Below, piece by piece: positions 9,986 to 22,732 of a stretch of DNA of 64,000 nt; within the stretch, counting starts at the first letter, position 1, and each line of letters opens with the position of its first letter. Position numbers and translations under genes: made by a program. Where the stretch lies: the NCBI GenBank assembly GCA_023421675.1, contig JAEZTC010000001.1, positions 31,388 through 95,387 on the forward strand. The letters are read 5' to 3'. The notes below the pieces were generated by a model. That model saw only the letters and a program-made list of their open reading frames with translations, had not been told where the DNA came from and made no database searches. The DNA is from Bacillota bacterium. GTDB taxonomy: Bacteria > Bacillota > Clostridia > Acetivibrionales > JANLFN01.

Positions 9986-10193
9986 GTGTTTTTTTGAGCC
10001 TTTTTGTTGGAATTCACGCAGTTGTATGTTATAATATACAGGTTAAATTAGAAATAGTGTACCCAACTTTTGCATATGACCTTATAACCACAGGTAAATA
10101 AGGCTTTGTGGATAATTGCGTAGTGTGAAAGCACACTATTAGAATATAGAAAAAATTATATTTTTAACTAATTATCAGGAGGAAATACAAAAA

Positions 10194-11483
10194 ATGAACG
10201 TGAAAGTTGAGAATGTTGAAAAGAATGTTGTACAACTCGAGATAGAAGTTGATGCAGCAAAATTCGAAGAAGGCATGAAGCAATCTTTTATAAAAAACGC
10301 AAAGAAATTCAACGTGCCTGGCTTCAGAAGAGGCAAAGCTCCAAGAAGTGTAGTTGAAAGATATTACGGTGAGCAGGCTTTATATGAAGATGCTATAAAC
10401 ATCGTTTGTGCAGATGCATATGATGAAGCAGTTGAAGAAAACGATTTGCATCCTGTTGAAAGACCTGAGCTGGACATAAAACAGATTGGAAGCGGCCAAA
10501 ACCTTATATTTACTGCAAAGGTTACTGTAAAGCCTGAAGTTACTCTTGGAGAGTATAAAGGCCTTGAAATAAAGAAGACAGTAGCCAATGTTACGGATGA
10601 AGAAGTAGATAATGAAATAAAGAAGGCAGCTGAAAAGAATGCCAGACTTGTATCTGTTGAGGACAGGCCTGTACAGAAAGATGACATTACAACCATTGAT
10701 TTCGAAGGCTTTGTTGACGGAGTAGCATTTGAAGGCGGAAAAGGAACCGATTACAGCCTTACAATAGGTTCAGGACAATTTATTCCCGGCTTTGAAGATC
10801 AGTTGATTGGCGCTAAAATAGGTGAAGAAACAGAAGTAAAGGTAACATTCCCGGAAGAATACCACAGTGAGGAGCTTTCCGGAAAACCTGCTACCTTTAA
10901 AGTAACTGTTAAGGAAATAAAGGTTAAGGATATTCCCGCAATTGATGATGAATTTGCTAAAGATGTTAGTGAATTTGATACTTTGGAAGCATATAAGGAA
11001 GATCTCAAAAATAAAATGGTTCATGAAGCTGAACATCAGGCTGAACACAAAAATGAAGACAGCGTAATTGGAAAAGCTGTTGAAAATGCTTCTGTTGATA
11101 TCCCTGAAGTAATGGTTTCAAAGAGAGTAGACGATCTTGTAAGAGATTTTGAAATGAGGATTCAGTACCAAGGACTTGACCTTAATAAATATCTTGAAAT
11201 TATGGGCATGGATTATAATACTTTCAGAGGTCAGTTCGGCAAGAGAGCTGAAGATGAAGTTAAAACACAGCTGATTCTTGAAAAGATATCACAGGTTGAA
11301 GACATCCAGGTAACTGATGAAGATGTTGACAAAGAGATAAAAACCATGGCTGAAAATTATAAGCAGGATGCAGAAGAATTTAAGAAACATTTGAGTGAAG
11401 ACGATATAGAATATATTAAGGAAAGCAACAAGATGAAAAAGACAATTGATTTCCTTGTTGAAAATACTAAGTTTGTTGAATAA
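10194..11483 (+). CDS. tig: trigger factor
   Basis: 429 aa. FKBP-type PPIase core (FEGFVDGVAFEGGKG). Canonical tig-clpP-clpX order. RBS is AGGAGGAAA. Confidence 0.95.
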   Translation: MNVKVENVEKNVVQLEIEVDAAKFEEGMKQSFIKNAKKFNVPGFRRGKAPRSVVERYYGEQALYEDAINIVCADAYDEAVEENDLHPVERPELDIKQIGSGQNLIFTAKVTVKPEVTLGEYKGLEIKKTVANVTDEEVDNEIKKAAEKNARLVSVEDRPVQKDDITTIDFEGFVDGVAFEGGKGTDYSLTIGSGQFIPGFEDQLIGAKIGEETEVKVTFPEEYHSEELSGKPATFKVTVKEIKVKDIPAIDDEFAKDVSEFDTLEAYKEDLKNKMVHEAEHQAEHKNEDSVIGKAVENASVDIPEVMVSKRVDDLVRDFEMRIQYQGLDLNKYLEIMGMDYNTFRGQFGKRAEDEVKTQLILEKISQVEDIQVTDEDVDKEIKTMAENYKQDAEEFKKHLSEDDIEYIKESNKMKKTIDFLVENTKFVE

Positions 11484-17293: not shown

Positions 17294-18346
17294 TTGAGAG
17301 TTTTGGAGTTGAAAACATTGCAAACAAAAAAGGATATAGTTGTTCTTGGGATAGAGACAAGCTGTGATGAAACATCAGCAGCTGTTGTAGTTAATGGAAG
17401 AGAAATGCTGTCTAATGTGATATCTTCACAAATAGACCTTCACAAAAAATATGGCGGAGTGGTTCCTGAAATAGCATCCAGGAAGCATGTTGAACTGGTT
17501 ATGCCTGTTATAAATCAGGCATTGAAGGAAGCGGGCAAAAATCTATGTGATATTGATGTAATAGGAGTTACATACGGTCCGGGGCTTGTAGGAGCTTTAC
17601 TTGTAGGACTGACAGCTGCAAAAGGTCTGGCCTTTACACAGAACAAGCCTTTAGTGGGAATACACCATATAGAAGGACATATAGCTGCAAATTATATTGC
17701 GCATAAGGAGCTTGAACCCCCCTTTATATGTCTTGTAGTTTCAGGAGGACACAGCCATATTGTTTATATAGATGATTATGACAGTTTTGAAATAATGGGG
17801 CAAACCAGGGATGATGCGGCCGGAGAAGCTTTTGACAAGGTTGCGAGGGCAATTGGCCTTGGTTATCCCGGCGGACCATTAATTGATAAGGCTGCAAAAA
17901 AAGGTGATAACAAGGCTATTAATTTCCCAAGAGTTCACTTTGACGACAAAAGTCTTGATTTCAGTTTCAGCGGTCTTAAAACAGCAGTCCTTAATTACCT
18001 TCATAATATGGAACAAAAAGGCGAGAGCTACAGTCTGGAAGATGTTTCTGCAAGCTTTCAGCAGGCAGTTGTAGACATATTAGTTGAAAATACCATTAAA
18101 GCGGCTTCTCTGAAGAATACAGATAAAATAGTTATTGCAGGCGGAGTAGCAGCAAACTCGGCGCTAAGGGATTGTATGACAAATGCAGCGTCAAAACGAA
18201 AAATAGGGGTATATTATCCCGATATTATTCTGTGTACAGATAATGCGGCTATGGTTGCAAGCGCTGCTTATTATGAATTCATTAAAGGAAAAATGTCGGA
18301 CATGCATTTAAATGCTGTTCCTGGTTTGAAAATTGGTGAAAGATAG
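17294..18346 (+). CDS. tsaD: tRNA N6-adenosine threonylcarbamoyltransferase TsaD (Gcp/Kae1)
   Basis: [30 protein letters not shown] and the HxEGH-type metal site (HHIEGHI). Start codon is uncertain (TTG 17294/17312/17321). Confidence 0.9.
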
Positions 18347-18347
18347 C

Positions 18348-18380
18348 TGTGGATAACTAATAATTATCCACATTTTTTTA
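18348..18380 (+). terminator. terminator hairpin built from two inverted consensus DnaA boxes
   Basis: TGTGGATAA (18348-18356) and TTATCCACA (18364-18372) form a 9-bp stem followed by TTTTTTT. Both arms match the DnaA-box consensus TTATNCACA exactly. Confidence 0.7.
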
Positions 18381-18563
18381 TTGTTTAAAAAACATTTACA
18401 TATATGACCATTTTTAGATATTTAAGAGAAATGGTACAAGATGGGAAAAGATGTCGAATGTAATATTATGTTAACGAAAAAGTCAGATGCCAGAATCGCT
18501 TGGGACTGTAGTCCTATAAAATTATTAATTCTGTACTTGTCATATTATGTTGAAGAAATGCAT

Positions 18564-18645
18564 GTGAATAATGTGGAAATTTTGCGGAAACGTAGTATTT
18601 TGTAATATTTGAAACTGTGGATAACAGTGTGGATATTGTGGATTA
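18564..18645. promoter_or_regulatory. DnaA-box cluster in the convergent intergenic region downstream of tsaD
   Basis: Perfect boxes (reverse orientation) at 18564-18572 (TGTGAATAA) and 18616-18624 (TGTGGATAA). One-mismatch boxes at 18628-18636 and 18637-18645. Two-mismatch box at 18573-18581. Confidence 0.6.
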
Positions 18646-18720: not shown

Positions 18721-19359
18721 TCAAGTTCCTGAGAAAGACCTGTAATATTGCATAACTTTCTTTACATAATCCTGTGTTTCTGCATAAGGAGGAATACCGT
18801 TATATTTTTTGACACTACCCGGACCTGCGTTATAAGCAGCGAGTGCAAGTGAAATGTTACCATTGAATGTATTTAGCTGATCTCTTAAATACTGCGTACC
18901 GCCGTTAATATTCTGACCTATGTCCCAGGCATTTGTAACACCCAGTGCGTCAGCTGTTCCCGGCATTAGCTGCATCAGACCCTGTGCACCTGTGTGCGAC
19001 AGAGAATAAGGATTAAAGCCGGATTCTTGTTGTATTACCGCTTTGATAAGGTTGGAATCTACCCCGTATTTCTGGGACGCTGCAAGTACGTTGGTGTTAA
19101 TTAGGTTCATAAGAGCTGACTTGTTTGAGGGTATGTTTGAGGTGTTTTGTGCGAGTGCAGCTTTTGCGCGCAAGACATCGCTTGTCCTGTCCAGACCTTG
19201 TTTATCTATTGCATTGCTGCTCATAGCATTGTCAAGATATGTATCAAAACTTGAAGTTTCAGGAGTTGTTTCCTGACTTTTTATATTAAATTTGATTGGA
19301 ACTCTTGATTCTATCTCTCTAAGCTTTTGCAGAAATAAGCTGTTAATGTCTATACCCAT
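18721..19359 (-). CDS. lytic transglycosylase (SLT domain) protein
   Basis: SLT motif [37 protein letters not shown] 5 nt upstream on the minus strand. Confidence 0.85.
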
Positions 19360-19489: not shown

Positions 19490-19801
19490 TCAGGAAACTT
19501 CCTGTTGCGAGCGGCGAGAAAACTTAGAGCATGCATTCTTCTGCGTACCGTCAAAGGTTCTGACTGAAAACAGTCTGCATAATCCTATAGTAGGATTGGA
19601 TTGAGATGTAGTTATAAAATTTTCACATTGGATACATTTATTCCTTACTTCGGGTTCAAAAAGACTGGAGCTTGGAGCAAAGTGGTGCTTGCGGCACACG
19701 TAATCAGGCGATACTGCACCTTTGTCCCTGCAAAGAAGGTCGCTGTTGACACGTATTGAGGATGAGTGTATGCAATTGCTGCAGCTTTTCTTTTGTTTCA
19801 T
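19490..19801 (-). CDS. Cys-rich small hypothetical protein (12 Cys)
   Basis: 103 aa. GGGGGA RBS 4 nt upstream. Multiple CxxC pairs (CSNC, CIQC). No recognisable family. Confidence 0.45.
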   Translation of the reverse strand: MKQKKSCSNCIHSSSIRVNSDLLCRDKGAVSPDYVCRKHHFAPSSSLFEPEVRNKCIQCENFITTSQSNPTIGLCRLFSVRTFDGTQKNACSKFSRRSQQEVS

Positions 19802-21395: not shown

Positions 21396-21860
21396 ATGTC
21401 AGGCGAAGGTATTAAAATAGTTGCTCAAAACAAAAAAGCTAGGCACGATTACTTTATTGAAGATACTCTTGAAGCAGGCATAGTGCTTTCAGGTACCGAG
21501 GTCAAGTCTATAAGACAGGGCAAGGTTAATTTGAAGGATAGCTATGCAATGATAGAAGACGGTGAAGTAATCTTAAGCGGTATGCACATAAGTCCTTATG
21601 AGCAGGGCAACATATTTAACAAGGATCCTTTGAGGGACCGCAAGCTGCTGCTTCATAAGTACGAGATAAACAAGCTTATCGGTTACACACAGCAGAAAGG
21701 CCTCACAATAGTTCCTCTACAGCTGTATTTTACACGAGGAAAGGTAAAACTGCAGCTTGGAATAGCTAAAGGTAAAAAGCTCTACGACAAACGCGACGAC
21801 ATAGCGGAAAGAGATGCGAAGCGCAATATAGACAGAATGATGAAGGAACAGAGTAGGTAA
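21396..21860 (+). CDS. smpB: SsrA-binding protein
   Basis: 154 aa. SmpB signature ([30 protein letters not shown]). Immediately upstream of tmRNA. Confidence 0.95.
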
Positions 21861-22341: not shown

Positions 22342-22732
22342 GGGGGCGTATTGGTTTCGACGGGATTGTTGAGACTTGGGTAGCGGGTAGAGGATTCTCG
22401 TTGGCCTCTTAAAAAACGAGAAACTAAAATTAAACGCTAAAAATAATAACAATTATTCATTAGCTTTAGCAGCTTAATACTGCTAACCGTCAGTCCAGGG
22501 TTCCTGCACCTTGGGTAGCTGGCGTCATTAAGTCAGGCCTTCGGCATAGGAAGGTTAAATGCTGGAACTTTTGCAGCGGTAGCCTTGAGCTGTAATCGTA
22601 TTTAAAGGATACTGAAAGTGTAATCCTGCCTGTGGGAGTGCACCGTAGGGAATGTAAAAATGCAGGATACACCCGTAGAAGCTCTTGTGGATATGGTTTC
22701 GGACAGGGGTTCGACACCCCTCGCCTCCACCA
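22342..22732 (+). ncRNA. ssrA: transfer-messenger RNA (tmRNA, 10Sa RNA)
   Basis: 5' GGGGGCGTATTGGTTTCGACGGG and 3' GGACAGGGGTTCGACACCCCTCGCCTCCACCA. Internal tag reading frame GCT AAA AAT AAT AAC AAT TAT TCA TTA GCT TTA GCA GCT TAA gives AKNNNNYSLALAA. Follows smpB. Confidence 0.95.

Follow-up and report, generated by a model that had tools for sequence, protein, structure and literature searches.

Region 18348-18645 of the window, the 64-kb stretch of DNA analysed here, is very probably a non-origin DnaA-box cluster, a predicted site of stable DnaA assembly and the Clostridia counterpart of the B. subtilis cluster DBC[gcp-ydiF]. The region lies in a 375-bp gap between tsaD (+ strand, ending at 18346) and a convergent lytic-transglycosylase (SLT) gene (- strand, ending at 18721), in a neighbourhood that comprises uppP, tsaD, the SLT gene and a PHP phosphatase gene. 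Matches to TTATNCACA with at most one mismatch were taken as DnaA boxes, and at least four to five boxes, several of them perfect, as a cluster. Within 298 bp the region holds six such boxes, three of which are perfect copies of TTATCCACA, and one conserved box with two mismatches. Five boxes are packed in 83 bp (18563-18645). The features are as follows.

17294..18346, + strand: tsaD (gcp); NCBIfam TIGR03723 TsaD, E = 1.3e-133
18348..18382, + strand: tsaD intrinsic terminator (terminator scan); 9 pairs, 7-nt loop, tail TTTTTTTATT
18348-18356, - strand: proximal DnaA box TTATCCACA, 0 mismatches; left hairpin arm, starting 2 nt past the tsaD stop
18364-18372, + strand: proximal DnaA box TTATCCACA, 0 mismatches; the sole box pointing towards the distal array
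18563-18571, - strand: box a, TTATTCACA; 1 mismatch to TTATCCACA, fits TTATNCACA; first of the abutting pair
18572-18580, - strand: box b, ATTTCCACA; 2 mismatches to TTATCCACA; second of the abutting pair
18581..18615, no strand: spacer of 35 nt between boxes b and c
18616-18624, - strand: box c, TTATCCACA, 0 mismatches; the most conserved box
18628-18636, - strand: box d, ATATCCACA; 1 mismatch; 12 bp after box c
18637-18645, - strand: box e, TAATCCACA; 1 mismatch; abuts box d
18721..19359, - strand: convergent SLT gene; NCBIfam lytic transglycosylase and Pfam SLT matches

The terminator stem (18348-18372) directly follows the tsaD stop at 18346 and its arms are the two inverted perfect boxes, an arrangement found for the proximal pair only. 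The start of tsaD is called later in some assemblies, which yields a 342-aa product. A previous sequence-only reading of this DNA had described the inverted pair as the terminator stem, a perfect box at 18616-18624 and two one-mismatch boxes at 18628-18645, and all of these were recovered. It had further placed a perfect box at 18564-18572 and a two-mismatch box at 18573-18581; both boxes exist, each one base lower, at 18563-18571 and 18572-18580.

The clustering of the boxes is far beyond chance, although their total number is ordinary. The window contains 6 matches to TTATNCACA compared with 4.0 +/- 1.9 expected, and 23 boxes with at most one mismatch compared with 21.7 expected. Six of these 23 fall in the 298 bp described above, and every other 300-bp stretch of the window holds at most one. 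Dinucleotide shuffles of the window (n = 300) yielded a maximum of 3 boxes per 300 bp against the 6 observed, and shuffles of the intergenic region alone (n = 5000) gave a mean of 0.24 and again a maximum of 3. Across the usable related loci, three or more boxes in 480 bp were present at 29 of 138 tsaD 3' ends and in only 1 of 1626 control windows drawn from the same loci (~1 Mb). The suspected local peak in box density is therefore sharp, both in the window and in about 1 Mb of related loci.

A search with the TsaD protein, limited to one genome per species, provided 80 loci for comparison. The nearest (L001) belongs to a Bacillota MAG with 95% TsaD identity, followed at 66-75% identity by Acetivibrio mesophilus, Ruminiclostridium cellobioparum, R. 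papyrosolvens and related MAGs. The cluster is located directly 3' of tsaD in 21/21 close relatives (L001-L020 and L057; TsaD identity down to 66%), so that the conservation expected from the sequence-only reading holds for all close relatives sampled, and three Clostridia MAGs at greater distance (L024, L043 and L064) have it as well. It is kept across lineages at only 55-75% TsaD identity while the spacers diverge. In most other Clostridia sampled the cluster is absent after tsaD; Staphylococcus, Listeria, Paenibacillus, Clostridium sensu stricto and Peptostreptococcaceae lie outside the sample.

The genes on both sides of the element are rearranged, and tsaD is the only constant partner of the cluster. 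The gene upstream of tsaD is uppP in the window and rimI or others elsewhere. Downstream, an SLT gene is found in most lineages; its place is taken in L002 and L003 by a radical-SAM-like gene, in L020 by one for a chemotaxis receptor (MCP), in L024 by one with a CBS domain and in L064 by mfd. The SLT gene is thus context only and not a constant partner. The placement between convergent genes is shared by the window and most lineages, and the downstream gene is co-directional in L002, L003, L024 and L064. In L002 (+558..+1889 from the tsaD stop) and L003 (+369..+1805), an extra gene of 443-478 aa is inserted between the array and the SLT gene; we take it to be radical-SAM-like from its CxxxCxxC-like N-terminus. 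The array in these two loci consequently precedes a co-directional gene.

A register-fixed comparison of 12 loci of the Acetivibrio/Ruminiclostridium clade gave mean pairwise identities of 0.82 for box b, 0.39 for the 35-nt spacer, 0.96 for box c, 0.28 for the 3-nt gap, 0.89 for box d, 0.86 for box e and 0.36 for the 30-nt flank. The TGTGGAAA of box b is conserved across the clade, and box a is conserved in the alignment of relatives. In a MAFFT alignment of seven close loci (alignment A1), box c is invariant and the invariant columns fall mostly within boxes, while the sequence from the terminator to box a is poorly conserved. This pattern indicates that selection acts on the boxes rather than on the surrounding DNA. 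Closer to tsaD, the proximal - strand box (18348-18356) is conserved in L001-L004 and L013-L018, and L005-L008, L019, L020, the B. subtilis locus L082, L085 and L087 likewise have a + strand box near tsaD. Because L003 retains the inverted box pair despite having separate terminator hairpins, it is the box sequence itself, and not merely a hairpin, that is maintained.

The arrangement common to the clade consists of a + strand box near tsaD, often with a - strand partner, followed by an array of exclusively - strand boxes. The steps within the array are 9 bp for the abutting pair, 44 bp to box c, 12 bp to box d and 9 bp to box e. Same-strand distances between boxes, measured in 15 representative lineages, fall into sharply discrete classes: the 42-44-bp step was found in 15/15, the 9-bp step in 13/15, the 21-bp step in 9/15 and the 12-bp step in 8/15. 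The length of the spacer is conserved at 33-35 nt throughout these 15 lineages and its sequence is free. At 28 loci plus L086, this layout recurs downstream of tsaD with unchanged orientation; elsewhere in the 2.1 Mb scanned it was encountered four times, as chance matches at isolated sites in coding regions. The exception is the B. subtilis strain of locus L081, which has a step of 41 bp in place of the 43 bp of L082, a 2-bp difference in the spacer. The spacing constraint is tight, not absolute.

The sequence-only reading had likened the region to the B. subtilis cluster between gcp and ydiF. The literature confirms that cluster, and the B. subtilis sequence, once retrieved, displays the box layout of the window. 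The B. subtilis TsaD used as a probe matched database protein P0001 at 100% identity; loci L081 and L082 are database records. In B. subtilis, + strand boxes just past the tsaD terminator are followed by - strand boxes, among which the abutting pair TGTGGATAG TGTGTATAA is separated by a 34-nt spacer from a perfect TGTGGATAA. A genome of the B. pumilus group (L083) has an abutting pair, 33 nt, a box, 3 nt and a further box. A metagenome scan for Bacilli returned, among the matches listed, mostly distant TsaD loci without clusters and at least four Bacillaceae-like contigs, of which the three usable ones (L085, L086 and L087) have a layout in common with the window. By the definition of same layout proposed here, which is not taken from the literature, the window, the Clostridia lineages, L082, L083 and L085-L087 all share one arrangement.

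Several features are common to the two elements. Both are situated directly 3' of tsaD and between convergent genes, and both have + strand boxes near tsaD that precede a - strand array. DBC[gcp-ydiF] includes 8-10 boxes, several of them perfect, and the window cluster is likewise a multi-box element with perfect members. In both, an abutting pair with a 9-bp step is followed by a spacer and a perfect box, the 34-nt spacer of B. subtilis corresponding to a 43-bp step. An additional box at +12 after the strong box is present in the window, the B. pumilus-group genome and L086/L087. The differences are that the window belongs to another class, being part of an Acetivibrio/Ruminiclostridium-like MAG of the Clostridia; that the convergent partner is an SLT gene instead of ydiF; that the terminator stem of the window is itself made of two boxes, whereas the B. 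subtilis terminator precedes the boxes; and that the window has a distal triple with 12- and 9-bp steps. DnaA binding has been shown only for the B. subtilis element, and the window element is known from its sequence. Shared position and layout suggest an old element, short of proving common descent. Most other sampled Clostridia lack the cluster, so that the shared layout may reflect either descent from a common ancestor with the Bacillus element, followed by many losses, or convergence.

Box-bearing sites of other appearance were observed at related tsaD loci. In L083 (4030-4250), two hairpins follow tsaD, each with TGTGGATA in its loop (aactcctgTGGATAcaggagtt), so that a DnaA-box sequence is again found in terminator-like hairpins. 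In the metagenome contigs L091 and L093, whose TsaD proteins are about 55% identical to that of B. subtilis, a smaller set of boxes occupies +66 to +180 after tsaD, in the same place and with a different layout: L091 has TTATCCACA and then two TGTGAATAA boxes 31 bp apart, and L093 has only two TGTGAATAA boxes. These boxes lie just upstream of a gene read as ispD-like.

Conservation of the gcp-ydiF cluster within the Bacillaceae has been known since 2007. In B. subtilis, DnaA stably binds eight intergenic regions in vivo, including gcp-ydiF; of the 8 boxes there, 4 are perfect, and their position at the 3' ends of two convergent genes is described as "uncharacteristic for transcriptional regulation" (PMC2533591). 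In vitro, DBC[gcp-ydiF] contains 10 sites and binds ATP-DnaA with a Kd of 0.15 uM; when little protein is present, ATP-DnaA is favoured 16-fold (PMC4447404). Across Firmicutes, a Clostridia species among them, DnaA keeps its base-contacting residues and the box consensus is preserved (PMC7561715), and the array should consequently be bound by DnaA here too. The sequence-only reading had also stated that such clusters titrate DnaA and modulate initiation. This applies to the six B. subtilis clusters deleted together; deletion of DBC[gcp-ydiF] alone left the ori/ter ratio unchanged (0.99 of wild type), and its re-insertion alone into the six-fold deletion did not restore control (3.13 vs 3.17) (PMC3245932). 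For this one cluster, titration is thus a putative role.

The geometry of the array allows a mechanism to be proposed. Boxes c, d and e, which are strong, and the a-b pair all point in the same direction and would be bound by DnaA. The presence of two same-direction anchor groups 33-35 nt apart, together with the ATP preference of the B. subtilis element, suggests a single cooperative ATP-DnaA oligomer. ATP-DnaA may thus oligomerise over the 35-nt spacer into one filament-like complex of ~7-8 protomers that would cover 83 bp (18563-18645). The spacer was scanned for cryptic low-affinity boxes in an 11-bp register, and weak box-like matches were found within it only at +11 and +20 (4.0 and 3.7 of 9, with a background of ~2.5); being so faint, they argue only weakly for a filament that crosses the spacer. 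A boundary or closure of the complex may be provided by the opposing box at the tsaD terminator. Such a complex would keep DnaA from the origin and, with other sites of this kind, could make a redundant contribution to the timing of initiation. As the array is placed between a terminator and a convergent gene that has no clear terminator, transcription could modulate it: read-through into the array might alter its occupancy, or the bound array might block read-through.

A further known parallel is E. coli datA, a non-origin DnaA-box cluster that lowers initiation potential and, like the window cluster, is found just after the terminator of a translation-related unit, glyVXY, read-through transcription from which modulates it (PMC10950094). 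By contrast, datA requires an IHF site and stimulates the hydrolysis of DnaA-bound ATP, whereas the window cluster has no recognisable bending-protein site and no sequence or positional homology to datA. B. subtilis lacks both IHF and datA (PMC13220808). The 35-nt spacer, conserved in length, displayed no conserved motif in the 12-locus comparison.

Among the alternatives, an effect on local transcription fares best, and we regard it as possible, if clearly less probable than the DnaA assembly site. The array would in that case be a DnaA-dependent cis-regulator instead of a DnaA sink, one that blocks convergent read-through (from tsaD on the left and the SLT gene on the right) or controls an antisense transcript into tsaD, and that couples t6A modification to replication status. 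The constancy of tsaD through rearrangements on both sides and the construction of its terminator stem from two boxes are consistent with such a role. The terminator scan found no convincing SLT terminator on the - strand between 18372 and 18721, and SLT transcripts may therefore cross the array. Precedents are ywlC, a B. subtilis gene that DnaA represses directly (PMC2533591), and datA, which is under read-through control after the glyVXY terminator (PMC10950094). On the other hand, no conserved sigma-A-type promoter was recognised in or beside the array, where the best local matches reach 9/12 and the candidate hexamers differ between clades. In B. subtilis, effects of the DnaA level on gcp and ydiF expression were undetectable because expression is weak (PMC2533591). 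The DnaA-regulated promoters of B. subtilis (dnaA, sda, ywlC and yydA) are likewise DnaA-box clusters stably bound by DnaA, but they are positioned upstream of the regulated gene, whereas the window cluster is at gene 3' ends. Only 9/12 promoter-like matches, no conserved ORF, no RNA family or structure signal and a next gene that is mostly convergent were found, a combination unlike that of a DnaA-regulated promoter or operator. A TGTAnnAT(T) block in the spacer of some close relatives was considered as a conserved promoter and is not supported as such: a -35 element to go with it is lacking, and neither Ruminiclostridium nor Bacillus has the block. Control of local transcription is compatible with the DnaA assembly site, and both could be true.

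A bolder version of the DnaA assembly site, which we consider doubtful, would make it an ancient Bacillota element that predates the split of Bacilli and Clostridia and was repeatedly lost. Its fixed layout would build one DnaA complex with a dedicated job, either as a datA/DARS counterpart that processes the nucleotide state of DnaA or as a link in cis between t6A modification and replication status. To our knowledge, no datA/DARS-type site that processes the DnaA nucleotide state is known in Bacillota. Coupling of the array with t6A synthesis is conceivable, because the array stays with tsaD throughout and because B. subtilis ywlC (tsaC), the gene for the TsaC partner enzyme of TsaD in t6A synthesis, is repressed directly by DnaA; both genes would then be DnaA targets.

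It is improbable that the boxes serve as operator to a DnaA-regulated promoter from which a small gene or sRNA, so far unannotated, is expressed within the gap, comparable to sda in B. subtilis; the 54-aa ORF at 18441-18605 (+ strand) would be one candidate. The gap of 375 bp is long for a convergent pair, the ORF is called in some assemblies, and a co-directional gene follows the array in L002 and L003. Nevertheless, the ORF is cut to 26 codons and its start is changed in the closest relative, L001, at 95% TsaD identity, and it has no family match on record; the small protein was rejected on these grounds, and the ORF is probably a false gene call. A structured RNA in the gap was likewise rejected, given the lack of an Rfam match at gathering score or at E <= 1 and folding z-scores of -0.81 and +0.20 on either strand, which carry no signal. 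The poor conservation between the terminator and box a and the convergent next gene in most lineages also speak against a small gene or RNA, an idea that is largely refuted as far as the ORF is concerned.

A cryptic or relic replication origin is very unlikely. The cluster resembles the oriC arrays of Firmicutes, which flank dnaA, in its 9-mer consensus, mixed orientations and tight packing, and its same- and opposite-oriented boxes stand beside an AT-rich stretch (18373-18440). It differs from them in that the neighbours are uppP, tsaD and the SLT gene and not dnaA or dnaN, and in the lack of a recognisable unwinding element; no run of DnaA-trio repeats was seen on reading the sequence. Throughout the 64 kb, to either side of the cluster, GC skew keeps a positive sign without a switch, which marks the + strand as the leading strand, and oriC was rejected. 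The B. subtilis counterpart is, moreover, a known non-origin site (PMC2533591, PMC3245932). Least credible of all is that the boxes are a chance by-product of AT-rich intergenic DNA and of a hairpin terminator whose palindrome doubles one box: the whole-window count does not exceed the shuffled expectation and the two terminator boxes are not mutually independent, but the shuffles, the conservation of boxes at 55-75% TsaD identity beside diverging spacers, and the control windows refute it.

In the papers searched, none was found that links DnaA boxes to tsaD or t6A, or to Acetivibrio, Ruminiclostridium or C. thermocellum, and both the presence of the cluster in Clostridia lineages and the spacing rule across two classes appear to be new there. 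How DnaA is controlled at sites other than the origin has been worked out well for E. coli (datA, DARS) and is poorly understood in Gram-positive bacteria. That an element of this position and spacing recurs in distant anaerobic Clostridia argues for long-term selection and for an importance of geometry, not just of the number of boxes. A vague "DnaA sink" thereby becomes a testable structure, for which the 2-bp spacer difference between L081 and L082 offers a natural variant of the spacing. For annotators, the layout also offers a simple means of recognising a non-coding feature that at present goes unannotated.

Other observations concern the gap and its surroundings. The motif TGTCGAA, the core of the Spo0A '0A-box', is found at 18453-18459 in the window and also in L001, L003, L013, L016 and L043, between the tsaD terminator and the distal boxes. 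It is enriched in the gap, at 0.91 per kb as against 0.17 per kb elsewhere in the loci, but its distribution is patchy and the loci are related, so that chance may account for it. A palindrome, CCATT(N)ATGG, is invariant in L013-L018 (alignment A1, columns 82-120); it corresponds to 18408-18437 of the window, where, as in L001, an insertion of 17 nt interrupts it (CCATTT...AAATGG). Beyond the SLT gene, a conserved cysteine-rich protein of 101-121 aa with CxxC motifs, encoded at 19490-19801 (- strand) in the window and without an NCBIfam match, always accompanies the SLT gene in L001-L019. A lone perfect TTATCCACA at 10107-10115 (- strand), noted by the sequence-only reading ahead of an ORF that it took as tig, is indeed present 79-87 nt upstream of the 429-aa ORF 10194-11483, at the frequency of one per 64 kb that chance predicts. 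Finally, a tmRNA gene (Rfam RF00023, 184 bits) occupies 22342-22732 (+ strand), in an ordinary position after an ORF read as smpB-like (21396-21860).
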